A stretch of 64,000 nucleotides of DNA from Bacillota bacterium (GTDB lineage: Bacteria > Bacillota > Clostridia > Acetivibrionales > Acetivibrionaceae): NCBI GenBank assembly GCA_049325575.1, contig JBMOLK010000188.1, positions 2,758-66,757 on the forward strand, read 5' to 3'. This document shows, in pieces, positions 3,541 to 38,753 of this stretch (within the stretch, counting starts at the first letter, position 1; every line of letters starts with the position of its first letter). A program made the position numbers and the translations under genes. The notes beneath the pieces are model-generated. The model ran no database searches, had not been told where the DNA came from, and was given only the letters and a program-made list of their open reading frames with translations.

Positions 3541-3541
3541 T

Positions 3542-9214: not shown

Positions 9215-9232
9215 CTTGATGCGGAGGTAGCT

Positions 9233-10141: not shown

Positions 10142-10211
10142 AAGACAAGCAAGAGATGATAGCAATTAAAAAGAGCACAGGAGCAAATAAAGCTTATCAT
10201 TGTGCGCTGGC

Positions 10212-10244
10212 AGCACCCTGCCTTTGGGGTGCTTTCTTCTTCTT
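10212..10244 (+). terminator. rho-independent terminator of sulfur operon
   Basis: AGCACCC-TGCCTTT-GGGGTGCT hairpin followed by TTCTTCTTCTT. Confidence 0.55.
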
Positions 10245-10663
10245 AATTCATTCCTATTTCATGTGAAACAGGTCTTGTAGTTTCCAGCCGTCAATTAATC
10301 AGTATTTATATTCGGATTTTGTAAAGTAGGCACATAGTCTTTACTGAATAATGATGCCTATTTTTCTTATGTCTACAAATAAATTTCCATAAGTGGTTTA
10401 TATACCTGCGTAGAGTATATAAAAAATATACCTTTTTTTACCCAGGTATTTAAATAATAATATCATTAAAAGTTCATTATTAAGAAAAAATCTATAGAAG
10501 TTAACCTTTCAAGTGGCAAGTGGCTCTGGGATTAAAAACAGCAGGCATTCAATGGTTGAAGAGAATACTGACAGGCATCAGCAGTTAGATATAGAGTAAA
10601 GGGTTTAAACAGCCTGGACAAGTATGAAGAGATACTTAATTAAGTTACAAGGGGGGAATTCCA

Positions 10664-11809
10664 GTGGTTATCAAAAATATTGTTGTTGGTGCCGGCTTTG
10701 CCGGAAGTATTATGGCCCGGCTTATTGCAGAAGAAAAGGGTGAAGAAGTATTAGTTGTTGAAAAAAGAAATCACATCGGTGGTAATGCATTTGATTTTTA
10801 CAATGAAGATGGAATCCTGGTACATAAGTATGGCCCGCACATATTTCATACCAACAGCAAGTCAGTTTGGGATTATCTGTCCCGGTTTACCAAGTGGAGA
10901 TTATATCAGCATAAGGTTCAAGCGTTTATTGATGGACAGAAAGTGCCAATTCCCATAAACATAGACACCATCAATAAGCTGTATGGTACATGTTATAACG
11001 CTGATAATATTGAGGCTTTTTATAACTCAATACGGGTATCCCGGGATAGTATTGAGAACTCTGAAGATATGGTAATAAGTAAGATTGGAACGGAGCTATA
11101 TACAAAGTTTTACAAGCACTATACAAAGAAACAGTGGGATTTATATCCAAATGAGTTGGATCCGGAAGTAACTGCCCGAATACCTGTTAGGCCAAATAGA
11201 GATAACAGATATTTTTCAGATATGTATCAGGGTATACCAAAGCATGGATATACAAGGATGTTTGAAAACATTCTGGACCACCCTGGAATACATGTATTAC
11301 TAAACACCGATTTCCAAAAAACCAAGGATCACTTTAATTGTGAGAAGATAATATATACCGGATGTATTGATGAGTTCTTTGGGTTTAAATTTGGCAAACT
11401 ACCATACCGTTCACTTGATTTTGAATTTGAAACCTTAGAGCAGAAAGAGTTTCAGGAAGTAGGAACAGTAAATTTTCCTAATGACTATGATTTTACAAGA
11501 ATTACGGAGTTCAAACACCTCACAGGTCAAAAGTCTTGCAAAACCACTATCATGAGAGAGTATCCATGTGCTGACGGGGAACCGTATTATCCCATACCTA
11601 AAAAAGAGAATAATGAATTATACAAAAAATATATCACAGAGACAAGAAAACTGGAGGGAGTTTATTTTTGCGGGAGGCTTGGGAGCTACCAATATTATAA
11701 TATGGACAAGGTTGTAGAAAATTCCATGCAACTTTTTACGTTGATTTTCAAAGACAGTTCTAGCAATAGGAGAGCAATAAAACCATACAACAAAACTATT
11801 AACTTTTAG
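10664..11809 (+). CDS. glf: UDP-galactopyranose mutase
   Basis: VVGAGFAGSIMARLIAE...HIGGNAFD...GPHIFHT N-terminal FAD motif typical of UGM. Confidence 0.85.
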   Translation: MVIKNIVVGAGFAGSIMARLIAEEKGEEVLVVEKRNHIGGNAFDFYNEDGILVHKYGPHIFHTNSKSVWDYLSRFTKWRLYQHKVQAFIDGQKVPIPINIDTINKLYGTCYNADNIEAFYNSIRVSRDSIENSEDMVISKIGTELYTKFYKHYTKKQWDLYPNELDPEVTARIPVRPNRDNRYFSDMYQGIPKHGYTRMFENILDHPGIHVLLNTDFQKTKDHFNCEKIIYTGCIDEFFGFKFGKLPYRSLDFEFETLEQKEFQEVGTVNFPNDYDFTRITEFKHLTGQKSCKTTIMREYPCADGEPYYPIPKKENNELYKKYITETRKLEGVYFCGRLGSYQYYNMDKVVENSMQLFTLIFKDSSSNRRAIKPYNKTINF

Positions 11810-12981
11810 TGGAAGTAGTGAATCTAAGTTTAAAAGTAACTATGCAACAAATCACTGCGAGGAGGGTTAAAATGAATAATTTGCAAAGCTATGAAAGCAT
11901 TTCAATTATTATAATTACGCATAACCGGCAGGAGCTGGTGAAAAGGTGTATTGAATCGGTAATGACTGCAGTGGGTTCTTATAGGGGACAAGTTGAACTT
12001 ATTATTGTTAATAGTTCTACCGAGCCTTTAGGTATTAAAGGAGATTTTATAAAAGAAATATATGTACCGGAGATACCAAAACCATATAAAAAGAGAAATA
12101 TAGGAGCAAAAGAGAGTAAGTTCGAATGGTTATTATATCTTGACGATGATTGTATAGTTGATAAGGATATACTAAACATTCTAAATGGCAATATTGCTAA
12201 GGCAGGTAATAAGGTTGGAGGCTTTTATGGAGTTACACAGTTTTTTGGAGATATGACTTATGCATCAAAGTGCTGTGAGAATTCAAATTTTACAAACATA
12301 TTCAAGGCTCCTGAGTATCAGGACGAAATGGCATGGGGTGCTGCAGTAGCTCCACTATTTAGAAAGAAAGCTCTTCTTGAGGTCAACGGATTTTCCGAGC
12401 AGTTTACATCGCCGGTTGGAGGAGAGGATTTGGATTTTGGGGTTAAACTAAATGAAAAAGGGTGGATTTTAAAGGGTATACCCAAGGTTCTTTCTTATCA
12501 CGGATATGAAACCTGGAACTCCTATACCGGCAACCTAAAAAGGTTCTTTAGATACGGGATGGCTGAAACCGGTATAGTGGAGAATCACCCAAGGCATACC
12601 TTTCTAAAGCTTAATTCCTTAATTTTTCTGATCATACCGGTTTTGATAGATCTAGTGCTTTTCTATTCAGGTATTGCTGCACTATTGATTAAAATTCTGA
12701 TTTACTTGTTTGCTACTTCTATTGTCTCTATCTTTTATTATAAATTTAAGAATAAGATACCGTTTCACTATGCAGTCGGACTTGTTTTTTATGATCGGGC
12801 CTTTGAACTTGGTGCAACATTTTCTTCTATTATAACAAGAAACATTAAGACTTTGTTTTTAAGATTTGAGTATCAGAAGCAACGAAAGTTTCTTATTAGA
12901 AATCCCCTTACAAATGTATTGCTTCTACTGGAGCTGTCCAGTGTTGTTATAACTATACTGTTAAATCACACTATTCTTTAG
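11809..12981 (+). CDS. family-2 glycosyltransferase with C-terminal multi-TM domain
   Basis: ISIIIITHNRQELVKRCIESV and YLDDDC (DxD) GT-A motifs, with ~5 TM helices in the C-terminal 130 aa. The more plausible start is 11872 (MNNLQ), which has an AGGAGGG RBS. Confidence 0.7.
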   Translation: MEVVNLSLKVTMQQITARRVKMNNLQSYESISIIIITHNRQELVKRCIESVMTAVGSYRGQVELIIVNSSTEPLGIKGDFIKEIYVPEIPKPYKKRNIGAKESKFEWLLYLDDDCIVDKDILNILNGNIAKAGNKVGGFYGVTQFFGDMTYASKCCENSNFTNIFKAPEYQDEMAWGAAVAPLFRKKALLEVNGFSEQFTSPVGGEDLDFGVKLNEKGWILKGIPKVLSYHGYETWNSYTGNLKRFFRYGMAETGIVENHPRHTFLKLNSLIFLIIPVLIDLVLFYSGIAALLIKILIYLFATSIVSIFYYKFKNKIPFHYAVGLVFYDRAFELGATFSSIITRNIKTLFLRFEYQKQRKFLIRNPLTNVLLLLELSSVVITILLNHTIL

Positions 12982-13036
12982 CAATACAAAATCAATATTA
13001 ACTGGTGATTTTATAAACAGGAGGGAGTAAAACCAA

Positions 13037-14644
13037 GTGTATATGGATATAGTACCAAAGCAGATAGATAGAATAGGTACAAGCAACAACGGAGCATTTT
13101 GTTTTGACGATTGTATTGCAACATACGCGGGATACATTGGACGAAGCTATGAAATGATGTATGGCAACTGCTGGAGCTTTAGTCTAATTCCAGGACGGAT
13201 GAATGATACAACTTCTTTGGTAGAAATAATGAATACTGATAGAAATGAAAGCTATAGATTACTTGAAAAGCTTCATGGTATTAAATTGAAGAGAGAGAAG
13301 CTTTTAGAGAGTAGTAAAGCAAAAAGCTATATATTAGAGGAGTTGGAAGCCGGAAGGCCTACGGTATTTATAACAGATGCTTTCTGGTGTCCCTGGGACC
13401 CTGTGTTTCAGAAATACCATAATATTCACGCTTTCCTGATAGTCGGCTTTGACGAAACAAATAATAGTTTTATTTGTGTAGACAGCTATTTCCTAAAGTG
13501 CAATTCAGTCCTGCCGATGGAGTGCTTTATTAATGGCTATAAAGGCATATACTCCTTTGAAGCATTACCTGAACCTGTCGTTATAAATTATGAGGAAGTA
13601 ATAAGAGATCATGCGAAAAGTTTACTTTCAGGATGCAGTGGGGAAAATCATTTTGAGTTGATGCGTAGTTTTGGCAGTGAATTAATGAATATAGACATAA
13701 AAAGGCAGCTTGAAGACAGCGGTGAGTTTTGGTTATGCCCTATATTCCAGGTATTCAATTATATAATTTCTACCCGGGTTTTATATGCAAACGCTTTAAA
13801 ATACATTGCTGATAAATCCAATATCAAATATGTGGCTGAAATTTTGGAGTCTTTCCTTCTGGTTATTGAAAAATGGAATGTGGCTAAGGGAATGCTTATT
13901 AAATCCTTTAGCCTAAATAACACGCATACCGAAGTAGTGAGGAAGCTTAGCGATACAATAATTGAGCTGGCCAAAGAAGAGGAAGGGCTTGCTTTGGATA
14001 TAACTAAAGCAAATATTGACCAACTGAATATCAAAGCATCTATAAAGGATAATAAAGTAAGCAGGCAAGATATAATAAATTATTCATGTAACGATTATGT
14101 TTTTATTGACCTGTCCGGCTATTTAAACAATAAAGGCTTTGATACATATCCTCCTAAAAGCCCTATGTCCGACTTTACAAGTTATGGACACTATTTCATT
14201 AGAGAGGAAGATTTTATAAGAGATACATGGAATGTTGGAGATATGTTGTTTAAAGTACACATAGACCCTAACGAAACATATGACAATGTATCATGCATGG
14301 GGCAGGAGATATCAGTTCCAGAGGGTTATTATGGAAGGATTCGGATTATGGGGTGTTCGGAATATGGAAGCTACACGGATAAAGTTGGTATATACACAAC
14401 AGGTGGAAATGTATATAGCATTCCCATAACGTTTTATGAGTGGTGTGATAATTCAAACAAGGATATCCTGGCATGGAAGGGAAGAATTGCTCACAAAAAA
14501 GAAAACGAAGTATTGATCATTGATCAGGAACACAAGATCTATGCAAAAGAGTTTGTACTAAGCTATAACGAGAAGATAAACAAAATTAAACTACCGGAGT
14601 GTCCCAATTTGCATTTGTTTGCAATATCAATGCTTAAGTCTTAG
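13037..14644 (+). CDS. hypothetical protein, possibly BtrH-N/papain-like (GAFCFDDC Cys motif)
   Basis: 535-aa ORF with strong coding periodicity and no confident family assignment. Confidence 0.3.
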   Translation: MYMDIVPKQIDRIGTSNNGAFCFDDCIATYAGYIGRSYEMMYGNCWSFSLIPGRMNDTTSLVEIMNTDRNESYRLLEKLHGIKLKREKLLESSKAKSYILEELEAGRPTVFITDAFWCPWDPVFQKYHNIHAFLIVGFDETNNSFICVDSYFLKCNSVLPMECFINGYKGIYSFEALPEPVVINYEEVIRDHAKSLLSGCSGENHFELMRSFGSELMNIDIKRQLEDSGEFWLCPIFQVFNYIISTRVLYANALKYIADKSNIKYVAEILESFLLVIEKWNVAKGMLIKSFSLNNTHTEVVRKLSDTIIELAKEEEGLALDITKANIDQLNIKASIKDNKVSRQDIINYSCNDYVFIDLSGYLNNKGFDTYPPKSPMSDFTSYGHYFIREEDFIRDTWNVGDMLFKVHIDPNETYDNVSCMGQEISVPEGYYGRIRIMGCSEYGSYTDKVGIYTTGGNVYSIPITFYEWCDNSNKDILAWKGRIAHKKENEVLIIDQEHKIYAKEFVLSYNEKINKIKLPECPNLHLFAISMLKS

Positions 14645-14653
14645 CGGATTTGC

Positions 14654-17600
14654 ATGGTGTTTAGGGGGGAGAATATGAGTAATGTTGGTATGGAAAATAA
14701 GGTTAAGCTTTATCCACTAACCCATCCTCAAAAGAGAATATGGTATGGGGAAGTGCTTAATAAAGATACTTCCCTTTACAATATCGGAGGACCTGTAAGA
14801 ATAAGGGGATATGTAGATTTTGGTACTCTGCAGCAATCCATAAACATTTTTATAAAAAAGAATGATAGCTTAAGGATGCGGTTTAATGAACAAAACGGTG
14901 AAATAAAGCAGTATATTAGTGAATTCAAAGAGACTAAAATAGATTTTTTTGATTTCAGTACATGCAAAAATCCTGAAGATGAGTTTAACAAGTGGATAGA
15001 ATACGAAGCCGGTAAGAGATTTGACTTAAAAGAAGATTATTTATATTATTTTGCAATGTTTAAAAATGGCGAGTACGATTCCGGATACTTTGTTAAATTT
15101 CATCACTTGATAGCCGATGGCTGGTCAATGCAGATTTTGACAAGCCAGATTTGTGATATTTACATGAAACTTTTACATGGCTCCAGGATAGATGAAGAGG
15201 TTGAATATTCGTATTTAGAATATATTGATAGGGAGCAGAAGTACTTATTATCCGATAAGTTCATTAAAAACAGGAATTTTTGGAAACAAAAATTTCAAAC
15301 ATTGGATGAGGTGTATTTTGGTAAATCTTCTGAAAGCATCAAAGGGAATAGAAAGACTTTCAGGATGGATAAGGATAAATCCCTGAAGATAAAAAACTTC
15401 TCAAAAGAAAATAAATGCTCCTTGAACACACTGTTTGTTTCCTTATATTTAATCTATTTGTATAAGACAACACAACATCAAGATTTGATTATTGGAGTCC
15501 CTGTACTAAATAGATCAGGAAAAAGAGAAAAAAGCATATTTGGGATGTTTACAAGTACAATGCCTTTTAGAATGTATATAAAAGGCTCAATGACGGCAGC
15601 AGAATTTATAAACCATGTAAACAGCGAATTGATGGAATGCTATTTCAATCAGAAATATCCCTATGATCTTTTGGTGCAGGATATTGAGCTTAAGAAAAAG
15701 GGCTATAATGAGTTGTTTAATGTATGCATTAATTATTATAATACCAGGCTTAATACCGAATTTAACGGTGCTTTAACAGAAAATACGGAGTTTTATAATG
15801 GGAATCAGCTTTATTCGATGCAGATTGTTATTAAAGAATGGGAAGACTTAGGAGAAATAAACCTGGACTTTGATTATAAGTCAGGTGATTTTAGTGAAGA
15901 ACAGATCGAAAATATGTACATGTATTTAAGTAACCTGATTGATCAGATTACAGCAGATTCAATGGCTGTTATCGGATCGTTAAGGCTGCTTCCCGACTCT
16001 TCCAGGAACAGACTCATTTATGAGTTTAATTCAACATGTGTAGATTACCCGAAAAACAATACAATATTCCAGCTGTTTGAGGAGCAGGTTTGCAGGACAC
16101 CTGATAAGACTGCGGTAAGCTTTAATGGGAAAAGCATTACTTATAGAAAGCTTAACAAAAAAGCAAACCAACTTGCCAGACTGTTAAGATACAAAGGTAT
16201 TGGAAGAAATACTGCTGTAGGATTTATGACAACCCACTCAATAGAAACTGTTATAGGAATCCTGGGTGTTATAAAAGCAGGGGGTGCTTATGTGCCTATC
16301 GATCCCTGCTATCCTATGGAAAGAATAAACTATATCCTTGAAGATTCCAAGGTATCAGTTCTGCTTGCCAATTGTAGTCTGGATGGCGGTTTGGATTATA
16401 AGGTGGATATTATTGATCTTAGGGATGAAACCATATATAAAGGTGAAGCAAGTAATCCTGATTTAATAAATGAAATGAATGACCTGGTTTATATTATTTA
16501 TACTTCAGGTTCTACAGGAAAGCCTAAAGGCACAATGATAGAGCACAGGGGGCTTGTTAACTATATATGGTGGGCAAAAAAGATGTATGTAAGACATGAG
16601 GATGATGTTTTTGCGCTTTATTCTTCTTTATCCTTCGATCTTACAGTAACCTCGGTTTTTACACCACTTATAAGCGGGAATAAAATCATGGTTTATGCAG
16701 ATGACGGCGAAGAGTTTGTTCTTTACAGGATACTTGGAGATAATCAAACTACTGTTCTAAAGCTAACACCGGCACATTTATCATTGATTAAGGATTTGGA
16801 TAATAGTAATTCATCAGTTAAAAGGCTTATCGTTGGAGGAGAAGACCTAAAGGTTGTTCTTGCGAAGAGTATCTATGACAGCTTCGGAGGAGACATAGAA
16901 ATATTTAATGAGTATGGCCCTACAGAGACAGTGGTTGGCTGTATGATCCACAAGTATGATGTTGAAAAAGATACTGAACAATCAGTGCCTGTTGGTATAC
17001 CTGCTGATAATGTGCAGATCTATATTCTTGATAAAAATCTTGAGCCTGTACCTTTAGGAGTAAGCGGAGAAATTTACATTTCGGGAGATGGTGTAGCAAG
17101 AGGTTATCTGAATAGACCGGAGTTAACAGCTCAAAAGTTCATTGACAATCCATTTATTAAAGATAAGAGAATGTATAAGACAGGTGATATTGCCAGACAC
17201 CTGCCTAACGGTATAATTGAGTATTCAGGCAGGGCAGACTTTCAGGTTAAGATAAGAGGTTACCGTATCGAATTGGGTGAGATAGAGAATCAGATATTAA
17301 AAATAAAAGGTGTTGATGATGTTGTAGTTATAGACAGGGAAGACTCTTTAGGCAGCAAATACCTGTGTTCATATATTGTTTCAAAGGTACAAATGCCGTT
17401 AACAGAGATAAGGCAGTATTTGTCAGGTGTTTTACCTGATTATATGATCCCATCAAGGTTTGTATCCTTAGATAGAATTCCCCTTACAACCAACGGGAAA
17501 GTAAACAGACAGCTTTTACCCGAACCTTTGGAGGAAAATATTGATGAATCTGACTGTGTTTGCTTTAATAATAAAACAGAAGAAAAGATTATAAAAACTA

Positions 17601-19189
17601 TCAAGGAAGTGCTTAATGTTGCCAGGATAAACAGGAGAGATAATTTCTACCGGCTTGGCGGCGATTCAATTAAGGCAATTCAAATTGCAGCAAGGCTAAA
17701 CGAACTTGGCCTTAAGATAAGAGTAAAGGATATTCTATCTAAAAATGTAATTGAAAAAATCATGGCATGTGTTGAGACTGACACTGCATTTGAAGCTTTG
17801 GAAAACAAAGCCTTAGAAGGAGAAATCGGAATAACGCCAATTGTATCATGGTTTTTTGAGCAGCATTTTAAAAACCCCAATTATTATAATCAATCGGTAT
17901 TACTTTCCCTAAATACAAATGTTGGACTTGACAATATGGAGCAGGCAATAAATATATTAATCAGACATCATGATGCCCTAAGAATAAATTACAGCAGCCA
18001 GAAGGGTATTTTATATTATAACAATGACTATCTAAATGAACATCAGAAACTGCAGATATTTGACCTATCTTTCGTTCCCTTAGATGAACAGAAGGTAAAA
18101 ATGAGACAAATCTGTGAAGAGATAAAATCATCCCTGGATATTGAAAAGGGGATTTTATTCAAGGCTTGTGCGTTAGAGCTTGGTCATTACGGCAGGAGGC
18201 TTCTTTTAACAGGGCATCACCTGATTGTGGATGGTGTATCCTGGAGAATTCTGCTTGAGGACCTTGCCAGGGTTTTAGGTTCTCTGGAGAAGAATATTGA
18301 GTTGTCTCTGCCTCAAAAGTCAAGCTCACTCAAGGAATGGGCTTCACAGCTTTTAAAGCTTGGTCAGGGCAGCCTTAAACAAGAAAGAGAATATTGGAAT
18401 AACGTTATAAGCAGTAGTTTCAGTTTTCCGGTTGATTTTGATCTCGGCCATGACAATATAGAAAACTGTAACGTGAAAAGGTTTGTAATTGATGCTGATG
18501 ATACTGAAAATCTGTTAACCACAGCAAATGCTCCTTATGGTACAAATCCTAACGATCTGCTCCTTACTGCTTTGGTTGCAGCTATTAGGAAGATGTATGC
18601 TGCTGATGAGGTTGTAATAGAGCTGGAGGGACATGGAAGAGAAGACCTGTTTGACAGGTTGGATGTTACAAGGACTGTTGGCTGGTTTACAAGTATCTTT
18701 CCTGTAAAGCTTAAAGCTGTTGGTTCGGATTTAGGATCACAAATCAAGTCTATCAAAGAGCAGCTAAGGAGAGTTCCCAATAAAGGGATTGGGTTTGGTG
18801 TTTTGAAGTACATGTCAAAATTAGTTCCAGTCTGCGATAAAAGGTATGCAAGATTTAATTACCTTGGGGAGTTTGACAATAGTCAGGATGAAAATATTTA
18901 TAAAATATCACTTGAAGACTCGGGTCCTGACTCGGCTAAATCCAACCACTTGACATGTTTATTAGATATAAATGCATTGGTTTTAGACAAAAATTTAAAT
19001 ATATCAATAACTTACAGCAGAAACAAATACCTGGACGAAACGGTTGAAAAACTTATGAAGGAATACAAAAATTCACTGGCAAGTGTAATAAAACATTGCT
19101 TAGGCAAAAGACACTCTGTTGATTTTACACCATCAGATTTTGAAACATTAAATATCTCACAGGATGAACTTGACCAACTTTTTATATAG
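14654..19189 (+). CDS. NRPS module C(starter)-A-T-E with asparagine-type specificity code; ClbN-like prodrug-motif loader
   Basis: HHLIADGWS (C); YTSGSTGKPKG, NEYGPTE, YKTGD, GRADFQVKIRGYRIELGEIE (A); LGGDSIKAIQ (T); ITPIVSWFFEQ and HHLIVDGVSW (E). The hand-aligned Stachelhaus positions give D-L-T-K-I-G-E-V-G-(K). Confidence 0.9.
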   Translation: MVFRGENMSNVGMENKVKLYPLTHPQKRIWYGEVLNKDTSLYNIGGPVRIRGYVDFGTLQQSINIFIKKNDSLRMRFNEQNGEIKQYISEFKETKIDFFDFSTCKNPEDEFNKWIEYEAGKRFDLKEDYLYYFAMFKNGEYDSGYFVKFHHLIADGWSMQILTSQICDIYMKLLHGSRIDEEVEYSYLEYIDREQKYLLSDKFIKNRNFWKQKFQTLDEVYFGKSSESIKGNRKTFRMDKDKSLKIKNFSKENKCSLNTLFVSLYLIYLYKTTQHQDLIIGVPVLNRSGKREKSIFGMFTSTMPFRMYIKGSMTAAEFINHVNSELMECYFNQKYPYDLLVQDIELKKKGYNELFNVCINYYNTRLNTEFNGALTENTEFYNGNQLYSMQIVIKEWEDLGEINLDFDYKSGDFSEEQIENMYMYLSNLIDQITADSMAVIGSLRLLPDSSRNRLIYEFNSTCVDYPKNNTIFQLFEEQVCRTPDKTAVSFNGKSITYRKLNKKANQLARLLRYKGIGRNTAVGFMTTHSIETVIGILGVIKAGGAYVPIDPCYPMERINYILEDSKVSVLLANCSLDGGLDYKVDIIDLRDETIYKGEASNPDLINEMNDLVYIIYTSGSTGKPKGTMIEHRGLVNYIWWAKKMYVRHEDDVFALYSSLSFDLTVTSVFTPLISGNKIMVYADDGEEFVLYRILGDNQTTVLKLTPAHLSLIKDLDNSNSSVKRLIVGGEDLKVVLAKSIYDSFGGDIEIFNEYGPTETVVGCMIHKYDVEKDTEQSVPVGIPADNVQIYILDKNLEPVPLGVSGEIYISGDGVARGYLNRPELTAQKFIDNPFIKDKRMYKTGDIARHLPNGIIEYSGRADFQVKIRGYRIELGEIENQILKIKGVDDVVVIDREDSLGSKYLCSYIVSKVQMPLTEIRQYLSGVLPDYMIPSRFVSLDRIPLTTNGKVNRQLLPEPLEENIDESDCVCFNNKTEEKIIKTIKEVLNVARINRRDNFYRLGGDSIKAIQIAARLNELGLKIRVKDILSKNVIEKIMACVETDTAFEALENKALEGEIGITPIVSWFFEQHFKNPNYYNQSVLLSLNTNVGLDNMEQAINILIRHHDALRINYSSQKGILYYNNDYLNEHQKLQIFDLSFVPLDEQKVKMRQICEEIKSSLDIEKGILFKACALELGHYGRRLLLTGHHLIVDGVSWRILLEDLARVLGSLEKNIELSLPQKSSSLKEWASQLLKLGQGSLKQEREYWNNVISSSFSFPVDFDLGHDNIENCNVKRFVIDADDTENLLTTANAPYGTNPNDLLLTALVAAIRKMYAADEVVIELEGHGREDLFDRLDVTRTVGWFTSIFPVKLKAVGSDLGSQIKSIKEQLRRVPNKGIGFGVLKYMSKLVPVCDKRYARFNYLGEFDNSQDENIYKISLEDSGPDSAKSNHLTCLLDINALVLDKNLNISITYSRNKYLDETVEKLMKEYKNSLASVIKHCLGKRHSVDFTPSDFETLNISQDELDQLFI

Positions 19190-19231
19190 CAGAATTCAGG
19201 TACTTTAATATTAAATTGTGAGGGCTTAACT

Positions 19232-30600: not shown

Positions 30601-32498
30601 GCAAAATTCTGATTTTTGCTGATGAAAAGGGGATGGCCGATAATCTTGCATCAAAGCTTAAAACTGCACAAACCGAAGTTGCTATGGTGAATTTCGGCTG
30701 TGAGTATTTTAAGATCAGTGATGAAAAATATATTATATCTTCTAAGGAAAGGGATTACAAACGATTATTTAGTGAAATTGACCTTAAAGATATTGCTCAC
30801 ATTATTCACATGTCCAGTATATTGGGGAATTCAGAAATAAAAGATGTTAATGAGCTTGAAAGAAGCCAGGATATGGGAGTGAGAAGCCTTTTTCATATTG
30901 TTAGGGAGCTGCTCGGTATTGGCACAACAAACAAAGTGAATGTGTATCTTATTTCCCAATATGCCAACAGGGTAACTGGAAAGGAAAAAAGGATAAATCC
31001 TGAAAATGCAACACTATTTGGACTGGGCAAAGTCATTGAGCAGGAGTATCCAAACCTTAGCTTAAGATGTATAGATATAGATTTGGAAACTTCCATAAAT
31101 GAAATTTTTAAAGAAATATCAGCTTATTTGCCATCCAACCTGGTTGCCTACCGCGCTGGAAAGCGATATGTTGAAGAATTTAGAAGGCTTGAGATCGGTC
31201 AGATTTTAAGGCAGGACGTTTCCATAAAAGACAATGGTGTTTATTTGATTACCGGAGGATTAGGCGGCATAGGGCTTGAAACAGGAAAGTATATTGCGTC
31301 CAAGAATAGGGCAAATATCGCATTAATAAGCCGGTCAGAGCTTCCACCAGGTGAAGAGTGGGAAAAGATTCTAAGAGACGGTACTGACAGTATGTTGTGT
31401 CACAAAATAAAGGCCATTAAAGAAATTGAAGGCATGGGGTCAAGGGTAACATGTATTAGTGCTGATGTATCAAATGAAGAAGAAATTGCAGCTGCCGTTA
31501 ATGGATTGCGCCAAGTTTACGGAAGAATAAGGGGTGTAATACATAGTGCAGGGCTGGCGGGAGACGGGTTTATAATCAAAAAGAATCAAGAAGAATTTGA
31601 TAAGGTACTGTCCCCAAAGGTTAGAGGTACATGGCTTTTGGATATGTTAACCAGGCAGGATAAACCTGATTTCTTCATTATGTTTTCTTCAAATAATACT
31701 TTAATGGGTGTACCGGGGCAGGGGGATTATACAGCGGCAAACAGCTACCTGTGTGCATTTTCCGACTATAGGAATATAAGAGGTGAGAGAACACTGGCTA
31801 TAAACTGGCCTGCATGGAAGGAAACAGGTATGGCAGTTAACCATGGTGTCAACTTTGACAGTATTTTTAAGGCTATGCCTACAAAGCAGGCTCTAGATGC
31901 TTTCGATTTAGCCATAGGTCTTAATGTGAACAGGGTTATAATCGGTGAATTGAATGTTGGCGGTTCTATACACGGTAAAACAATATATGATGCAAAGATT
32001 AGTTTGTCAGAGCAAATAAAATCAAGGATAGACAGGAAAAACGAAAGTACCCCTGTAAAGAAGGGACTTAACGAAAAGGTTAAAGATATAAAGGTGGCAC
32101 TTAAAGGTAAAAAAACTGGAGACTTTACGGAGGAAGAAAAAATAATGGCAGGAATATGGAAGGAGGTTCTTGGATTTGAAGAGTTTGATATTTATGAAGA
32201 CTTCTTTGATATAGGAGGAGACTCTATACTGATAACAAAGGTACAGGCTTTGGCAGAGGAACGATTTCCCGGAAGAATTTCAGTTTCAGATCTTTTTTCT
32301 TACAGGACTATTTCAGATTTGGCTAAGCATTTATCAAAAGAACAGGATAAGCTTAAAGAGCAGCATTATATAGATATAAAGCCTATGTCATCCAGCTCTG
32401 ATATGGACAAAGGCATAAACGAACTTCTAGATGCAATACATAAGGGTGATATTGATATTGACAAGGCTGTTGAAAGCTATAAGTCTATGGGGGTATAG
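27681..32498 (+). CDS. trans-AT PKS module KS-(AT-less linker)-DH-KR-ACP
   Basis: DTTCSSSL, EAHGTGTKLGDPIE, SNIGHLD (KS); HxxxGxxxx-type DH motif (HRIMGDCVLVG); ITGGLGGIGL (KR); IGGDSILITK (ACP). No AT domain lies between the KS and the DH. Confidence 0.9.
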   Translation: MLNFENIRLNINKKPAPVELEEISKKDIAIIGAAIKLPMANTLEEYWNNLRNGIDCVRSIPDSRKRDADDILSQMDIDVSTVKYAEAAYLDEIDRFDYSFFKLAPKEACLMDPNQRLFLETAWNAVEDSGYGGTKLVGSRTGVYVGYGSDPDYKRLISSAEPEAASFALTGNVRPIIASRLSYLMDFRGPSLLVDTTCSSSLMAVHLALRGIRNGECELAIAGGVQVHILPVRQTKIGIESSDGRAKTFDDGSDGTGTGEGVIAIVLKSLSKALEDGDNIYAVIKGSAANHDGASIGLTAPNAEAQEDVIVRAWKESGIDPSTISYIEAHGTGTKLGDPIEIDGIQRAFRRFTGRKSFCAVGSVKSNIGHLDNTAGIAGLLKAVLALENKQIPPTLHFKYPNRKINFEESPVYVNNKLSDWNTEGFPRRCGVSAFGLSGTNVHIILEEAPLRSKEEYVTEAALNVFTLSAKSKAVLREMADNYTKFLEKNKGLNIKDICYTANTGRGHYGFRLAVLAKDNYELLERLRELSVSEFDYISNRRIFYGEHKLAPVNKEVLGEGEVTEAVVKETSIAAESKIRDFLSSAKESEDLIVEICKAYVKGAEINWEEFYKGRKYKRISLPSYAFEKKRCWVEAKGSSKRKVDYARDVQWSLLDNQVAESMGVDIYSTSFSVDSHWVLNEHRIMGDCVLVGTAYLEMAIQACHKHFQGVFVEFRDIVFVKPLVVREGEYKDVQTIITSRNGFYEFTVVSNGGFDDLGQVIWVRHVEGKILGCRERDIKAVDVSEIRDRNREGYFIPDIDSYNADSVFEFGPRWKNIREMYIGDGELLSHIKMPDMFTGELMDYVLYPSLMDNAIATMPLLDKLLKNSPFSGENGIFLPFSYKRLRILRSLPAEFYSYVKLKGDISDGSESVTFDIVLLDKSGEAFAEIEEYTLKKAKKNQMPQSKAGTSDIYYEVAWIPQDITVREKDIKKGKILIFADEKGMADNLASKLKTAQTEVAMVNFGCEYFKISDEKYIISSKERDYKRLFSEIDLKDIAHIIHMSSILGNSEIKDVNELERSQDMGVRSLFHIVRELLGIGTTNKVNVYLISQYANRVTGKEKRINPENATLFGLGKVIEQEYPNLSLRCIDIDLETSINEIFKEISAYLPSNLVAYRAGKRYVEEFRRLEIGQILRQDVSIKDNGVYLITGGLGGIGLETGKYIASKNRANIALISRSELPPGEEWEKILRDGTDSMLCHKIKAIKEIEGMGSRVTCISADVSNEEEIAAAVNGLRQVYGRIRGVIHSAGLAGDGFIIKKNQEEFDKVLSPKVRGTWLLDMLTRQDKPDFFIMFSSNNTLMGVPGQGDYTAANSYLCAFSDYRNIRGERTLAINWPAWKETGMAVNHGVNFDSIFKAMPTKQALDAFDLAIGLNVNRVIIGELNVGGSIHGKTIYDAKISLSEQIKSRIDRKNESTPVKKGLNEKVKDIKVALKGKKTGDFTEEEKIMAGIWKEVLGFEEFDIYEDFFDIGGDSILITKVQALAEERFPGRISVSDLFSYRTISDLAKHLSKEQDKLKEQHYIDIKPMSSSSDMDKGINELLDAIHKGDIDIDKAVESYKSMGV

Positions 32499-32502
32499 TT
32501 TG

Positions 32503-34548
32503 ATGGACAAAGTCTATAAAATGTTATTTGAGAATATTACTTCAGGAAAAGTTGACAGGAAAGCAGGGGTGGATATTCTAAAAGCTTTAAAGGAAGAAGA
32601 AAATCACAATACCAGAGATGATATGGCCATTATTGGAATATCTGCAAAGTTCCCTGGTGCGGAGAATATAAGTGAATTCTGGACAAACCTAAGAAGCGGA
32701 GTAAACAGTATTACAGATTTTCCGGAAAACAGACGCCAGGACTCGGATGCTTTTGTACCATTCACATATATGAAGAATGAAGATGTAAAATACTGCAAAG
32801 GTGGATATCTTAAGGAAGTAGACAAGTTCGACCATAGGTTTTTTGGAATTTCACCCAAAGAAGCAAGTCTTATGGATCCAAGTCAAAGAATCTTCCTTGA
32901 AACAGCATGGAATGCCATTGAAGATGGAGGGTACGGAGGCAAAAAACTTATGGGAAGCAGGACGGGCTTGTATATTGGATATTCCGGGTGGCCCATGTAT
33001 GGACAGTTTGTATCCCATGTTGAGCCAGCAGCTTTTGATGTCTCGGTTACAGGAAATATTTCAGCCATTATTTCAAGAAGAATACCTTACCTGATGGATA
33101 TGAGCAGTCCCAGCATGCTTATAGATACTGCATGCTCATCATCCCTTGTAGCACTCCATCTAGCATGCCAGGGCATAAGAAATGGTGATTGTGACCAGGC
33201 ATTGGTGGGAGCAATAAGACTTTTGCTGATGCCAATTGAAGGGATGATTTCATATGGCATTGAATCAAAGGACTATAACTCCAAACCTTTTGACGATAGT
33301 GCAGATGGTACAACCCTTAGCGAAGGCGTGGCTGCTATTTTGATTAAACCTTTAAGGAAAGCAATCAAGGATAGAGATAATGTCTATGCTGTTATAAAAG
33401 GAACTGCCTGCAACCAGGATGGAGGTTCAGTCGGACTTACTGCTCAAAGCGCTGCTGCCCAGGAAAATGTAATTGTTAAGGCCTGGGAGGATTCAGGCAT
33501 AAATCCGGAAACAATTTCATATATCGAAGGTTTCGGGGCTTGTACCAAGCTGGGTGATACCTTGGAAATAGAAGGCATTCAAAGGGCGTTTGGAAGATAT
33601 ACCCATAGAAAACAATTCTGTGGGATAGGATCAGTAAAATCAAATATTGGCCATCTTGATAGCTGTTCAGGACTGGCCGGACTGATAAAGTCGGTTCTTT
33701 CCCTAAAGCATAGGGAGATACCTCCTACTTTGAACTTTAGAAACCCTAATAAATCGATAAATTTTGAACAGTCACCAGTTTACATAAATGATAGATTAAA
33801 AAAATGGGACTCTGATATTGCTAAAAAAAGGTGCGGTATAAGCTCCTTTGGTTTTAGCGGTACAAACGCCCATGTTGTACTTGAAGAGGCAGCAGAGATT
33901 AATGTAGAAAGGAATTTAACAAAAAAACACTTCTTTATATTTGTTCTGTCTGCAAAAAGTAAGGAATCCCTGGAGGAGCTTATAAAAGCATATAAAGATT
34001 ATGTAAGAAATGAGAAAGAGGTAAGACTTCATGATATATGCTATACTTCCAGTACCGGAAGGGGGCATTACAATTACAGGCTGGCATTGATAGCAGAGAG
34101 TGAAGCAGAATTTACAGAGAAGCTGGAAAAACTTGACGCAGCGGAAGTCATTAATAATAGGGAAGATAATGTTTATTTTGGGTGGCATAAAGCTGTACCG
34201 GCTAATAAGGAGTTTAGACAGGACGGGGAATTGACCGAGTCTGAAATAAGAGAATACGGGAAAGCAGCAAACTTGCTGATAGACAAATACAAAAAAGATA
34301 TTTATGGGGAAAAAAGTATATTAGCAGAACTGTGCGGGTTATATGTAAAAGGAGCTGATTTAGATTGGGAGCGACTATACGAGGGTGATAAATACTACAG
34401 GATAAGTTTACCCGTATATCCCTTTGAAAGAAAAAGGTGCTGGATTAATGTAAAGAAAAAGCCTGAAGAATATATAAAACCAGGTACCAAAACAGATAAA
34501 GCCCGTTTAGAGAATGTACTTGATGAAAATATTGATTTTAAGTTTTAG
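32503..34548 (+). CDS. stand-alone non-elongating ketosynthase (KS0) with flanking linker subdomain
   Basis: The active-site Cys is retained (DTACSSSL), but the HGTGT histidine is replaced (IEGFGACTKLGD) and SNIGHLD is present. The probable start is at 32503 (MDKVYK) with a GGGGGTA RBS, not 32431. Confidence 0.75.
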   Translation: MDKVYKMLFENITSGKVDRKAGVDILKALKEEENHNTRDDMAIIGISAKFPGAENISEFWTNLRSGVNSITDFPENRRQDSDAFVPFTYMKNEDVKYCKGGYLKEVDKFDHRFFGISPKEASLMDPSQRIFLETAWNAIEDGGYGGKKLMGSRTGLYIGYSGWPMYGQFVSHVEPAAFDVSVTGNISAIISRRIPYLMDMSSPSMLIDTACSSSLVALHLACQGIRNGDCDQALVGAIRLLLMPIEGMISYGIESKDYNSKPFDDSADGTTLSEGVAAILIKPLRKAIKDRDNVYAVIKGTACNQDGGSVGLTAQSAAAQENVIVKAWEDSGINPETISYIEGFGACTKLGDTLEIEGIQRAFGRYTHRKQFCGIGSVKSNIGHLDSCSGLAGLIKSVLSLKHREIPPTLNFRNPNKSINFEQSPVYINDRLKKWDSDIAKKRCGISSFGFSGTNAHVVLEEAAEINVERNLTKKHFFIFVLSAKSKESLEELIKAYKDYVRNEKEVRLHDICYTSSTGRGHYNYRLALIAESEAEFTEKLEKLDAAEVINNREDNVYFGWHKAVPANKEFRQDGELTESEIREYGKAANLLIDKYKKDIYGEKSILAELCGLYVKGADLDWERLYEGDKYYRISLPVYPFERKRCWINVKKKPEEYIKPGTKTDKARLENVLDENIDFKF

Positions 34549-37500
34549 TGCTGGGGGGATATAATTTGACAAAAACGATTCAACAGTTGTTTGAAGAGCA
34601 GGTAGAAAAAACACCTGATAGTACTGCAGTATGGTATGAGGGTAATAAGCTTACCTTTAGAGACCTAAATGAAAAAGCCAATCAGCTTGCAAGGAAACTG
34701 CGTGAAAAAGGCGCAGGTCCCGATTGTATAACAGGTATTCTCTTTGAAAGGTCTTTGGACATGATAATTGCTATTGTTTCTGTACTAAAGGCTGGTAGTG
34801 CATATATGCCTGTTGCAGTTGATTATCCTGAAAACAGGAAAAAATACATATTGGAAGACAGCGGAGCGAAAATATTGCTGACTCAAAAACACCTTGCAGA
34901 AAGCCTTCCGCTGCTGCCAGGAGTTGATATAATTGCTATTGACGATGATAAAATCTATGGTGGAGATACGTCAAACCTCCAGGAAGGAAACAGCCCCAAG
35001 GATCTTGCATACGTTATATATACATCGGGAACTACAGGAAAGCCAAAAGGAGTTATGATTGAGAATAAAAGCGTTGTAAATCTTGTAAATGGGCTTTTCA
35101 GTCATATTTATAAAAGGTATGATTTCAGTTTAAATATTGCCCTTTTGGCGCCTTATACCTTTGATGCATCAATTAAACAGATCTTTCCATCCCTTCTTCT
35201 AGGGCATACACTATTTATTGTACCCGAGAGCATCCGGCTAGACGGAAAGGAACTTTTGAACTATTTTAACAGGAATTCAATTGACATAGCGGACGGAACT
35301 CCGGCGCATATCGGAATGCTTGCAAGTTATACGCCGCTTCTTAAAGACGAACTTGCGGTAAAGCACTTTGTTATAGGGGGAGAAGCCTTACCAGCAAAAC
35401 TGGTAAAGGAATTTTTAGACTCTATTGAAGAAAGAAAGCCTCTTGTTACAAATGTATATGGCCCTACAGAGTGCTGTGATGTTTCAACACTCTACACCAT
35501 TTATCCAAAAGAAGCTTATAGTAATAATATTATACCTATTGGGTCTCCCATAGAAAATGTAACCGTTTATATACTGGATGAAAATGAAAAAGCGGTAAAG
35601 GAAGGGACTGTGGGAGAATTATATATATCTGGAGAAGGAGTAGGTAGGGGATATTTAAATAAACCCCAGCTGACAAGCGAAAGGTTTATACCTGATCCGT
35701 TTATTAAAGGGAGAACCATGTATAAGACCGGTGATAAGGCAAGAATACTTCCGGACGGGAATATTGAATACCTGGGAAGGAATGACCATCAAGTAAAAGT
35801 TAGGGGCTTTAGAATTGAACCTGCAGAAATTGAATCGGAAATTATGGATTATGAAGCCGTAAAAGAAGCAGTAGTTATAGTAAGAGAAGAATATAGTGGT
35901 GATAAATATTTATGTGCCTACTACATATCCGACAGGGAAATCCAATCACAGGAACTTAAGGAGTTTTTAGCAAAAAGCTTGCCTTATTATATGATTCCGG
36001 CATACTTTATAAGGATGGTGAGCTTACCGCTTACGCACAACGGCAAGGTTGACAGGAATGCACTGCCCGAACCGGATATATGGGCTAACAAGGTTAAGAT
36101 TTATACAGCCCCTAAAAACGACACTGAAGAAAGAATGGCACATATATGGAAAGAAGTATTAGGTATTGGTCGGATTAGTATGGAAGATAACTTCTTTGAT
36201 TTGGGAGGACATTCCCTGAAAGCCAATATACTTGCATTCAAAATACATAAGGAGTTTAATATTGAAATACCTATAGCCGAAATTTTTGCAAATCCTACGG
36301 TCAATGATATGATAAGGTTTATGGAAGGAGCGGCAAGTAGAGATTATAAAAGTATACAACCTGTAGAGCATATGGATTTGTATCCTCTTTCCCTATCACA
36401 GAAATGGATTTTTGTCTCTAGCAGAGTAAACAGGGGAGATATTTTATGGAATATGCCGTGCTTGATGATGATTGATGGTAAACTTGATATAAAGCGTTTT
36501 GAAAATGCCCTGAACATGTTAGTGAAAAGACATGAAGCCTTTAGGACATCTTTTGAGATGACTGAACGGGGGCCGATGCAGAGAATTTATGATAATGTAA
36601 AATTGGATATATCATACATAGAGTCGGATGAAGATCAAATAGAAGGATTATTAAAGGAATTTATAAAACCCTTTGATTTAAACACCGTACCTTTATTAAG
36701 AGCGGGCCTTGCAAGAATATCTGAAGGCAAACATGCATTCTTATTTGATATTCACCATATCATATTTGATGGCTTGTCAGTAAATATCCTGTTGCGGGAA
36801 TTGGAAACTCTGTATGATGGCGGACAGCTGCCTGAATTAAAGATTCATTACAAGGACTTTGCTTACTGGGAAAATGAGCATTACATGTCAGGAGGGTTTA
36901 AAAAACAGGAAGATTACTGGTTGAAAGTTTTTAATGGCAAGATTCCGGAGCTTGATTTACATACGGATTTTCCAGGAAAACAGGAAATCGGCAATGAGGG
37001 TGACAGGGTAGTATTATCTCTAGGAGTTGATCTTACTGCCCATTTAAGAAAGTTTGCCTCAAAAGCAGGCTCATCCATTTACATGGTGTTGTTAGCTGCA
37101 TATAATATCTTGCTGTTTAAATATTCAGATCAGGAAGAAATTGTGGTAGGTACATTAACAGCAGGCAGACAGCATGCTGATCTGGAAAATATAATCGGCA
37201 TGTTTGTTAGGACCCTTGCAATGAAAAACCATCCCAAGCCATACAAAACTGCTGCTGAATTTTTAAGAGAAGTAAGGGATAACTCCTTAGCCGCATTTGA
37301 TAATCAGGAGTATCCGTTAAATCAACTTTTGGATGTACTCAAATTACCAAGAAATCTATCCAATCATCCATTATATAAAGTTATGTTTATAATGCAGAAT
37401 ATGGATAGCCCAAAGTTTAAAACGGATGGCCTTTTATTTAGACAGCATGACATTAATTTAAGGATCTCGGCATGTGATCTTATCCTGGAGGCTAGAGAAA

Positions 37501-37703
37501 ACCAAGAGGGAATAAAGCTAACTATGACTTACAAGACCAGGTTGTTTAAGAAGGAAACAATAGAGACCATGGTTTTAAACTATCTAAAGACATTGGAATT
37601 GTTAATTGTGAATCCGGATATTAAACTGTGTGATTTTGAATTGGAAGGACTACGTAAGGCTCTGGATAATGTTCTTGATGAAGATATTAATTTTAATTTT
37701 TGA
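34548..37703 (+). CDS. NRPS module A-T-C (terminal condensation domain)
   Basis: YTSGTTGKPKG, NVYGPTE, YKTGD (A); LGGHSLKANI (T); HHIIFDGLS (C). A TTG start at 34567 with a GGGGGGAT RBS is plausible. Confidence 0.9.
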   Translation: MLGGYNLTKTIQQLFEEQVEKTPDSTAVWYEGNKLTFRDLNEKANQLARKLREKGAGPDCITGILFERSLDMIIAIVSVLKAGSAYMPVAVDYPENRKKYILEDSGAKILLTQKHLAESLPLLPGVDIIAIDDDKIYGGDTSNLQEGNSPKDLAYVIYTSGTTGKPKGVMIENKSVVNLVNGLFSHIYKRYDFSLNIALLAPYTFDASIKQIFPSLLLGHTLFIVPESIRLDGKELLNYFNRNSIDIADGTPAHIGMLASYTPLLKDELAVKHFVIGGEALPAKLVKEFLDSIEERKPLVTNVYGPTECCDVSTLYTIYPKEAYSNNIIPIGSPIENVTVYILDENEKAVKEGTVGELYISGEGVGRGYLNKPQLTSERFIPDPFIKGRTMYKTGDKARILPDGNIEYLGRNDHQVKVRGFRIEPAEIESEIMDYEAVKEAVVIVREEYSGDKYLCAYYISDREIQSQELKEFLAKSLPYYMIPAYFIRMVSLPLTHNGKVDRNALPEPDIWANKVKIYTAPKNDTEERMAHIWKEVLGIGRISMEDNFFDLGGHSLKANILAFKIHKEFNIEIPIAEIFANPTVNDMIRFMEGAASRDYKSIQPVEHMDLYPLSLSQKWIFVSSRVNRGDILWNMPCLMMIDGKLDIKRFENALNMLVKRHEAFRTSFEMTERGPMQRIYDNVKLDISYIESDEDQIEGLLKEFIKPFDLNTVPLLRAGLARISEGKHAFLFDIHHIIFDGLSVNILLRELETLYDGGQLPELKIHYKDFAYWENEHYMSGGFKKQEDYWLKVFNGKIPELDLHTDFPGKQEIGNEGDRVVLSLGVDLTAHLRKFASKAGSSIYMVLLAAYNILLFKYSDQEEIVVGTLTAGRQHADLENIIGMFVRTLAMKNHPKPYKTAAEFLREVRDNSLAAFDNQEYPLNQLLDVLKLPRNLSNHPLYKVMFIMQNMDSPKFKTDGLLFRQHDINLRISACDLILEARENQEGIKLTMTYKTRLFKKETIETMVLNYLKTLELLIVNPDIKLCDFELEGLRKALDNVLDEDINFNF

Positions 37704-37726
37704 TGACCATAGAGGGAGGTAATAGA

Positions 37727-38753
37727 ATGGAAATTAAGGATTACACTAAGGAAGACGTAAAGTTCGATAAGGAGAGATCATATTGGCTCAATAAACTCCA
37801 TGGCATGTATACCAAATGATTTCCCGGATAAAGGAGAAAACGGCTATAAAAGTGCTGTTATGAGTTTTTCCTTTGACAAGGAAGTTTATGAAAGGATGAC
37901 AGCAATCAGCAATAAATCTGATTTTGCGCTATTTATTATATTACTTTCGGGGGTTAAATATATTCTGCATGAATACACCCAAAACAGCGATGTATTAACC
38001 ATAATGCCGGTATTTAAACAAAACTCTAAGAATGCTTTGCTTATAAACAGCATTCTTCCGCTCTTAACCAAACTAGATAGGAACAGAACTTTCAAGGAAT
38101 ATTTGAATGAAGTAAAAAATACCGTAGTTGATGCCAACGCCAACCAGAATTTTCCCATAATGAGTCTTATTGACCTCCTGAACGTAGAATTTGATGAAAA
38201 TGGACTCCCAATACTTGGTACGGTAGTTTCGTTAGATTCTGTTCACGATAAGGAATATATTGGAAGCTATAAGGCGGATACCCTCTTTTATTTTTACAAG
38301 GACAATGGGGACTTAAGGGTTGAAGTTGAATATAATTCCAATGCTTATGGCCAAGAAACTATAAGCCAGTTTGTAAAATATTTATTTGAATTTTTTGATG
38401 CTGTACTTAAGGTGCCGGAGAAAAGGTTAATAGATATTGAAATAATTCCAAATGAAGAGAGACAATTGATTAAGGAACGTATTGAGAGAATATGTGATTC
38501 AAAGAATAAACTAAGTTTCATGAACATAGAAGAGATTGAGGAAAAGTTAATAGAAATATGGCAGGATTTATTGGGAGTAGAAAGAGACGAAATAGAAAAT
38601 AATTCATTTTTTGAACTTGGAGGAAACTCCATGCTGGCAATTAAGCTGGAAATCGAAACTTCAAAGAAAGGGATTGTTATGAAATCTTCAGACATTTATA
38701 AATTTCAAACGGTTAAAGAGCTGTCAGCTTATATTGCAAGTAAAAATGAATGA
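37727..38753 (+). pseudogene. relic condensation-domain C-lobe plus PCP, interrupted by a frameshift near 37800-37815
   Basis: The 37727 frame reads MEIKDYTKEDVKFDKERSYWLNKLHG and stops at 37814. The 37800 frame continues with C-lobe-like FALFIILLSGVKYILHEYTQNSDVLTIMPV and FFELGGNSMLAIK (T). Confidence 0.5.

Follow-up and report, generated by a model that had tools for sequence, protein, structure and literature searches.

The gene cluster at positions 10664-38753 of the 64 kb window (the whole stretch of DNA that was analysed, from a Bacillota genome) raises the question of how a peptide-polyketide assembly line releases its finished chain when no thioesterase (TE) is encoded. All eleven open reading frames (ORFs) in this region, taken from a program-made list, lie on the + strand, and the region is a real, cryptic, antibiotic-like cluster of hybrid peptide-polyketide type that forms one co-directional unit. 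An earlier note on this DNA had described a combination of nonribosomal peptide synthetases (NRPSs) with a trans-acyltransferase (trans-AT) polyketide synthase (PKS), and this was confirmed by Pfam and NCBIfam profile scans against the cut-offs of the models. The note had also reported that TE, reductase and penicillin-binding-protein (PBP)-type cyclase are lacking; in agreement with this, the ORFs of 100 amino acids (aa) or more in the whole window yielded no match to Thioesterase or NAD_binding_4 and no stand-alone PBP-type protein, and no TE, reductase or PBP-type cyclase was found in the recovered parts of three orthologous clusters. For release the note had turned to the condensation (C) domain of the protein encoded at 34548-37703; the gene most likely to perform this step, located at 13037-14644 and here called X, was absent from it. 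Release by X, acting as a carrier-protein-dependent chain-release or transacylase enzyme, is considered here to be the best explanation and is given about an even chance, because X has a BtrH_N fold, a near-invariant catalytic triad and transacylase relatives, because its family is found fused to the C-termini of megasynthases without a TE, and because the window holds neither TE nor reductase.

The gene X (13037-14644, + strand) encodes a soluble protein of 535 aa with a Pfam BtrH_N match of 38.1 bits against a cut-off of 29.7. Residues 1-335 adopt a papain fold like that of BtrH, CtaG, AziU3 and CcbD, consisting of a papain-like N-domain and a helical domain with a Cys-His-Asp triad, and residues 350-535 form an AziU2-like beta domain. 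Of 151 aligned family members, 149 retain Cys22, 143 His131 and 149 Asp149, the putative catalytic residues, and in the same alignment the AziU2-like domain shows a second near-invariant set of motifs (DN(I/V)SC..Q, P520 and H526). The AlphaFold2 (AF2) model that was used, built from an alignment of 70 sequences, reached a pLDDT of 90.7; an earlier model from three sequences (pLDDT 48) was discarded. When a profile of X was compared with the Protein Data Bank (PDB), AziU2 (E 2e-17) and AziU3 (E 1e-3) were both matched, in collinear order, and a further papain-fold relative, CcbD, has been crystallised with a peptidyl carrier protein (PCP) domain. BtrH, CtaG and AsbE are carrier-protein-dependent transacylases with a Cys-His-Asp triad (PMC7183216, PMC12865890).

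An exhaustive HMMER profile search detected 2,077 representative proteins of the X family at E ≤1e-3 and 544 at E ≤1e-30, which overturned the impression from a word-indexed search (three relatives) that X is extremely rare. Twelve of the best 150 relatives are longer than 1,000 aa, and all of these are NRPSs or PKS/NRPS hybrids that carry X at the extreme C-terminus, directly after the last PP-binding domain in 11 cases and, in the remaining one (P0155), behind an additional Condensation-type domain. The triad is kept in all twelve, and Pfam detected no Thioesterase domain in any of them. Two of these proteins (P0151 and P0221) consist of half a C domain, an adenylation (A) domain, a thiolation (T) domain and X, and start with Met and a half-C head of the type YW..L.G; they thus represent the same subunit type as the last protein of the window's cluster, with X attached. 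Judged on sequence, this C-terminal fusion architecture would be the decisive observation in favour of release. X would off-load the finished chain from its carrier in place of a thioesterase, taking the chain on Cys22 and handing the acyl group to an amine, water or an internal nucleophile. At a probability somewhat short of even, the X-type AziU3-AziU2-like unit may moreover constitute a previously unrecognised class of NRPS/PKS chain-terminating domain or enzyme, which would replace the TE by way of an acyl-Cys, possibly coupled to amide or ring formation; no paper describing the X family as a terminal domain of megasynthases was found in the literature searched, most subscription journals being outside it.

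Several observations weigh against release by X. Within the cluster, the gene has a 5′ position immediately ahead of the gene for the first NRPS, away from the end of the assembly line. In two metagenomic contigs (L062/L069) X accompanies an NRPS with a C-A-T-epimerisation (C-A-T-E) order, an S12-like protein and ABC proteins, with no other NRPS, and therefore X could serve the cap module instead of termination. The closest solved relatives by sequence, AziU3/AziU2, are reported to form an aziridine and to perform no acyl transfer (Kurosawa 2022, cited via PMC9570651; PMC12865890). The carrier used by X does not appear to be identifiable from carrier-domain similarity: in an ambiguous comparison with the T domains that precede fused X, the domain N2_T was the best match in six cases and the others in two each. 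Chain release onto a free amine is within the capability of an LCL-derived C domain that stands before a dead A-domain remnant (A*) and a T domain (PMC10587159). Finally, the window copy carries a frameshift and a degenerate ketosynthase (KS), and the cluster is known from its genes alone.

The X family is recurrently linked to prodrug export of the ClbP type, including mini-clusters of gut metagenomes with UvrA-like genes. The mini-cluster of L062/L069 (positions 1-12000) encodes a pair of ABC-type ATPases that carry a weak UvrA DNA-binding signature, a 327-aa protein with a beta-lactamase fold, a C-A-T-E protein with the A-domain code DLTKIGEVGK, an ABC exporter, an X homolog of 32% identity and an 89-aa carrier-like ORF, and within 10 kb there is no sign of another NRPS; a further contig of this type (L070) is labelled human gut metagenome. 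X also adjoins the orthologous cluster L001, and in L001 as well as in L062 it is followed by a small carrier-like ORF. In L071 (3060-7462) a distant homolog (27% identity) has as its neighbours a Peptidase_C39_2 protein on one side and, on the other, an AlkD-like "DNA alkylation repair enzyme". A different cluster (L063, 106-12881) holds a family-2 glycosyltransferase (GT2) 70% identical to that of the window beside an X of 44% identity, together with radical SAM/SPASM, GT28 and amidohydrolase genes, a second BtrH_N gene, a peptidase-ABC fusion (46-50%), a type II thioesterase and a C-T protein; GT2 and X seem to move as a pair.

The beginning of the pathway can be read with greater assurance than its end, and the prodrug logic found there was not part of the earlier note. 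The cluster very probably represents an N-acyl-D-Asn prodrug pathway of the ClbN/ClbP type with predicted cleavage of the cap, because a C-A-T-E protein with an Asn code is accompanied by a fusion of a ClbP-like S12 peptidase with an ABC exporter. NRPS 1 (14654-19189, + strand) comprises C (residues 19-454), A (475-949) and T (977-1039) domains followed by an E domain, seen as a second Condensation stretch with the motif HHLIVDG and with TIGR01720 over residues 1360-1509; the motifs HHLIADG and GGDS are present as well, and the C-terminal tail is COM-like. The C domains were typed by context, for which the C domains of unrelated NRPS loci were assigned to the window C domain that they match best. 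By this measure the C domain of NRPS 1 is of the starter type, since 15 of the 16 C domains from other loci that match it best are N-terminal. The A-domain code extracted against GrsA is DLTKIGEVCK, and it differs only at the ninth position from DLTKIGEVGK, which we take to be the Stachelhaus code for Asn. NRPS 1 would therefore be expected to make the acyl-D-Asn cap.

The cap would be cut off during export by the protein encoded at 19232-22387 (+ strand), in which an S12 peptidase of beta-lactamase fold is fused to an ABC exporter, as in PamJ and ZmaM. A hydrophobic segment (signal or transmembrane) at the N-terminus, the motif STSK at residues 101-104 and transmembrane helices from residue 393 onwards mark the S12 domain, and it aligned over residues 47-483, membrane region included, with full-length ClbP in the PDB (7mdc, 7mde and 7ul6; E ~1e-57) and likewise matched Flp (4gdn, E 8e-59). 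The exporter half scored 372 bits with the cyclic-peptide exporter model TIGR01194 (cut-off 286). A role of the S12 domain as a PBP-type (SurE-like) offloading cyclase was ruled out by the signal or transmembrane segment, the fusion to the exporter and the match to ClbP. The pair of C-A-T-E protein and S12 peptidase has been described for colibactin, xenocoumacin and zwittermicin (PMC8264950), and the peptidase-ABC fusion PamJ for paenilamicin (PMC9054821).

Among the alternatives to release by X, the one that survives best is release by the C domain of NRPS 3 (34548-37703, + strand; true start probably ~34566), an A-T-C protein, onto a free amine such as a polyamine, with the half-C/(A*)/T subunit behind it as structural support in the manner of glidonin. 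The motif HHIIFDG of NRPS 3 is intact, and in the glidonin module C13-A*-T13 the C domain uses free putrescine while A* and T are needed for stability (PMC10587159); paenilamicin, whose pathway has the PamJ-type peptidase-exporter fusion, ends in spermidine. The earlier note had called this C domain terminal. It is neither a special terminal type nor strictly terminal: among solved structures it is closest to a C domain that serves elongation in TycC (module 6; 2jgp, E 5e-102), its distance to C domains that are free-standing or form esters is much greater, it is the best match of 66 ordinary T-C-A elongation domains from unrelated NRPS loci, which makes it an ordinary LCL domain, and a carrier-bearing subunit comes after it. 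These two findings, which the note itself had set as grounds for refutation, weaken the release route proposed in the note, which stays in consideration by virtue of the glidonin precedent. In addition, no gene for the supply of an amine is present within the cluster, and amine capture by the C domain would leave the conserved X without a role. Overall, release by this C domain is regarded as unlikely, though as a contender to be reckoned with.

The subunit that follows NRPS 3 bears on the same question. The last gene (37727-38753, + strand) encodes the C-terminal lobe of a C domain, which begins at a YW..KL motif and covers only positions 211-455 of the Condensation profile, followed by a T domain with the motif GGNS; its real start is 37727. 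In the orthologs L001, L002 and L066 the corresponding subunit has the order half-C/A*/T and a length of 545-553 aa, in which A* comprises the last ~215 residues of an A domain (A6-A10) with changed catalytic residues, namely Lys517 to Thr in L001 and L002 and a changed Asp of A7. The ratio dN/dS between L001 and L002 is 0.27 for this subunit (half-C 0.24, A* 0.30, T 0.32) and equals that of its neighbours (0.26 for the A-T-C protein and 0.36 for the carrier-less KS protein, KS2), and the subunit is therefore maintained by selection. The term relic used in the earlier note for the half-C-T protein consequently does not apply to the family, and purifying selection on a subunit with an inactivated A remnant is in keeping with the glidonin-like alternative. 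The sequence of an intact C domain, an A domain lacking its core and a T domain is present in the same three orthologs; in the window A* is absent, the gene is frameshifted and an extra half-C lies in between.

Against amine capture it also speaks that a junction of C with half-C-A-T recurs in unrelated NRPSs with a functional downstream A domain, which signals elongation. A full C domain, a stop and then a half-C-headed protein (YW..KL) with a complete A domain were observed in L009 (13144-14033; Paenibacillus caseinilyticus), in L017 (2058-2914) and in L023 (5681-6496), of which L017 is a metagenome-assembled genome (MAG) of Bacteroidetes and L023 one of Clostridium. Since these unrelated NRPSs share it, the C/half-C junction is an elongation junction, and by its sequence the last module of the window is a degenerate descendant of one. 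For the favoured release by X, the LCL domain of NRPS 3 and the half-C/T subunit would together form this degenerate last module and present the chain to X. The A-domain code of NRPS 3 is DAKDVGVDVK and is identical in the orthologs. The tail of KS2, LENVLDENIDFKF (34510-34548), and that of the A-T-C protein, LDNVLDEDINFNF (37665-37703), consist of nearly the same 13 residues and are conserved in L001, L002 and L066; acidic FxF tails (IEFTF, EEFNF, FDFDFDF and EIEFDF) were also seen on unrelated NRPS subunits that end in C, and the 13-residue tail may be a docking motif.

A second alternative holds that the cluster is non-functional in this strain and that its anatomy reflects decay and not a working release mechanism. 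The end of the pathway is damaged in this copy: a catalytic His is missing from KS2, A* has been lost and a frameshift interrupts the last subunit. KS2 (32431-34548, + strand; true start probably ~32500) consists of a KS with a linker and lacks a carrier; alignment shows that Cys and the His of NIGH are retained and that FGAC at 33526-33546 stands where HGTG should, for which reason it is a KS0 in the window lineage, as the earlier note had called it. The contig L064, 99.4% identical, shares the change of His to Phe with the window, and HGTG is retained in the three orthologs. In the last gene a 14-nt deletion near 37806 leaves an ORF of 30 codons (37727-37819) and a restart Met at 37800; the deletion also occurs in the second assembly L068, the two being assemblies of one sample (SRR32167786), and it is absent from L064, where the gene has 346 intact codons and a start equivalent to 37727. 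The window copy of this gene is freshly damaged. L064 shows 24 differences from the window, 13 of them inside a 213-nt part (38312-38525) of the linker between half-C and T, the site of the A* loss, a patch that suggests local recombination or relaxed constraint. Against decay, all other genes are intact, including their catalytic motifs (His motifs and carrier serines were all present in a motif scan across the cluster), the restart Met corresponds to native Met29, so that a nearly full-length product is possible, KS0 domains are normal components of trans-AT systems, and a sister strain (L064) has an intact last gene. A non-functional cluster is accordingly judged improbable.

The weakest alternative, and a quite improbable one, is that X is an AziU3/AziU2-like tailoring enzyme that closes a strained or electrophilic ring while the intermediate is bound to its carrier, release itself falling to amine capture, to spontaneous cyclisation or to a hydrolase whose gene lies elsewhere: it agrees with the collinear AziU3/AziU2 matches as the strongest in sequence and structure, with the second set of near-invariant motifs, with the relatives of X beside UvrA-like ATPases and an AlkD-like repair protein, and with an operon for sulfate activation directly upstream of the cluster that produces 3′-phosphoadenosine-5′-phosphosulfate (PAPS), but Pfam found neither a sulfotransferase nor an amino-group carrier protein among the cluster genes, the upstream genes are not sulfotransferases and look like primary metabolism, the invariant Cys-His-Asp triad indicates covalent acyl transfer, and the place after the last carrier in 11 of the 12 fused TE-less megasynthases is that of a terminating domain.

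Between cap and release, the assembly line can be followed through NRPS 2, the trans-AT and the two KS proteins. NRPS 2 (22555-26328, + strand) has the order C-A-T with a 210-aa half-C tail and the A-domain code DLKNFGTDIK. Its C domain is of the DCL type: of eight C domains located behind an E domain in other loci, seven match it best. The tail corresponds to the C-terminal lobe of a C domain, diverged and lacking the His motif (Condensation 29.3 bits, just below the cut-off of 30.6); it matched the end of the C domain in the A-T-C protein (BLASTP E 2e-6), is kept in L002 at 31% identity and showed no significant pairwise similarity to the half-C head of the last subunit (E 0.07). The AT is a separate 425-aa protein (26344-27621, + strand) of the malonyl type, FabD-like with the motif GHSLG (TIGR00128, 318 bits against a cut-off of 261), and has a 140-aa C-terminal extension (27196-27618) without a family detectable by profile scan. 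The module encoded at 27681-32498 (+ strand) is composed of KS, dehydratase (DH), ketoreductase (KR) and acyl carrier protein (ACP) domains and has KS-AT linker remnants in place of an AT; KS1 retains Cys-His-His (DTTCSSS, EAHGTGT and NIGH), and the DH His in HRIMGDCVLV and the KR motifs are present. The assignment to the trans-AT type follows from CurL-like_PKS_C and RhiE-like_linker matches without Acyl_transf_1 in both KS proteins, together with the separate AT.

From these domains NRPS 2 is predicted to add residue 2, and the trans-AT with the KS-DH-KR-ACP module one malonyl unit. Processing by KS, DH and KR to the enoyl stage would convert residue 2 to a vinylogous (gamma-amino-enoyl) amino acid; barnesin A is reported to be an NRPS-PKS hybrid product of an anaerobe with a vinylogous arginine (PMC13096860). 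The carrier-less KS2 would then transfer the chain onto residue 3, carried by the A-T-C protein, either by KS0 transfer or by formation of a C-N bond as in CalA3. No substrate is assigned to A domains 2 and 3, whose codes have Lys239 and Asp330 and may resemble those for Glu/Gln.

The remaining genes and the surroundings complete the picture. Every item of the domain inventory in the earlier note was found again; missing from it were, besides the BtrH_N protein X, two genes that together with X lie inside 10664-14644. The first gene of the cluster (10664-11809, + strand) encodes a UDP-galactopyranose mutase (Glf; TIGR00031, 406 bits against a cut-off of 304; Pfam GLF, E 1.5e-80), and its membership in the pathway is uncertain. 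It is followed by the GT2 gene (11809-12981, + strand; likely true start 11872), whose product matches Pfam Glycos_transf_2 and has C-terminal membrane helices (hydrophobic segments at residues 264-311 and 366-390). An Sfp-type 4′-phosphopantetheinyl transferase (62193-62903, + strand; Pfam AASDHPPT_N and ACPS), encoded 23 kb downstream of the cluster, possibly activates the five carrier domains. Identical or 99.4%-identical pieces of the window were found in Logan assemblies (L065, L068 and L064). Among 185,579 species-representative genomes there was no ortholog, cultured or otherwise, and only generic NRPSs with at most 48% identity were matched, from which it follows that the source species is not among the GTDB representatives. 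The three orthologous clusters (L001, L002 and L066/L067) come from metagenomic contigs, have the gene order C-A-T-x / AT / KS-DH-KR-ACP / KS / A-T-C / half-C-...-T and sit in different flanks.

The earlier note had thought that the region looks accessory. GC values of the cluster (0.34-0.42) show no contrast to those of its surroundings (0.33-0.43); the window contains neither tRNA nor mobility genes, and scans for tRNA, Rfam families and PADLOC systems yielded nothing that bears on the cluster. A terminator-like hairpin (10212-10233; terminator scan) separates the sulfur operon from the Glf gene. Upstream, the stretch 1861-10141 encodes two proteins of the PAPS-reductase family, CysN/CysC-like, ThiF and JAB proteins, a sulfite reductase, a Cys/Met pyridoxal phosphate (PLP) enzyme and a thioredoxin-reductase-like protein; more Cys/Met PLP enzymes and a cysteine-synthase-like protein are located downstream at 58523-61993. 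Directly after the cluster lies a truncated gene for a MoxR-type AAA protein (39078-39413), which covers the first 42 of 131 profile positions and continues in a PDLLP repeat, and which may be a rearrangement scar. Three co-directional genes at 41408-49270 encode a 209-aa membrane protein, a 700-aa protein without a family and a 1653-aa DUF3686/DUF7902/AAA ATPase, without a PADLOC match. A dockerin type I protein (52378-53139) points to an organism that bears a cellulosome.

With this cluster, a Bacillota lineage that is uncultured and apparently cellulolytic joins the few prodrug-activated peptide-polyketide pathways, among which are those leading to colibactin, a genotoxin, and to paenilamicin, a ribosome inhibitor, and the end of the cluster is an unusual one that is informative about evolution. 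The X family is large, is uncharacterised as far as the searchable literature shows, and is placed where thioesterases sit in NRPSs and PKSs. If X is the release catalyst, cluster-mining tools would call such pathways "TE-less" and mispredict their products, and engineers would gain a new off-loading module. The half-C-headed subunits and the shared acidic FxF tail may in addition encode rules for the docking of subunits.

In comparison with known systems, the window shares with colibactin (ClbN/ClbP), xenocoumacin (XcnG), zwittermicin (ZmaO/ZmaM) and paenilamicin (PamJ) the initiating C-A(Asn)-T-E protein and an S12 peptidase homologous to ClbP in its catalytic and membrane parts, and with PamJ also the fusion of this peptidase to an ABC exporter of the cyclic-peptide type. 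Like known N-acyl-D-Asn prodrug pathways it is a hybrid of NRPS and PKS, here in a Bacillota genome, but its line is much smaller, contains a trans-AT module, lacks a thioesterase and has a last module split into A-T-C and half-C-T, and it adds a conserved AziU3/AziU2-like papain-fold protein, a GT2 and Glf. The glidonin protein GdnB, with C13-A*-T13(-TE), resembles the orthologs in having an LCL-like C domain followed by a C-terminal A remnant and a T domain, and its release is TE-independent; in the window, by contrast, the module is split over two proteins, the second of which is headed by an extra half-C, A* is lost and no TE is present, and the use of a free amine would be an analogy. CalA3 is an ACP-less KS that forms a C-N bond (PMC10006239). 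It shares with KS2 the arrangement of a carrier-less KS and linker at a point where a polyketide chain meets an amine and no C domain is available; CalA3 keeps Cys-His-His, the first His of which is needed for amidation, whereas KS2 of the window is without that His and the orthologs keep it, and CalA3 releases its chain whereas KS2 would pass it onward. CtaG, BtrH, AsbE and CcbD have in common with X the BtrH_N domain, the setting among carrier-protein pathways and a similar spacing of the triad (22/131/149 in X and 11/128/144 in CtaG), but the identity is only 11-17%, X has an extra AziU2-like domain of 185 aa, and its family is fused to megasynthase ends, a fusion not described for the CtaG/BtrH class in the literature searched. 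Finally, X is homologous to both subunits of AziU3/AziU2 (Azi29/Azi28), the heterodimer that forms the aziridine of azinomycin; X differs from it in being a single polypeptide in which the catalytic Cys is invariant, and in belonging to a cluster without a sulfotransferase or an amino-group carrier protein.

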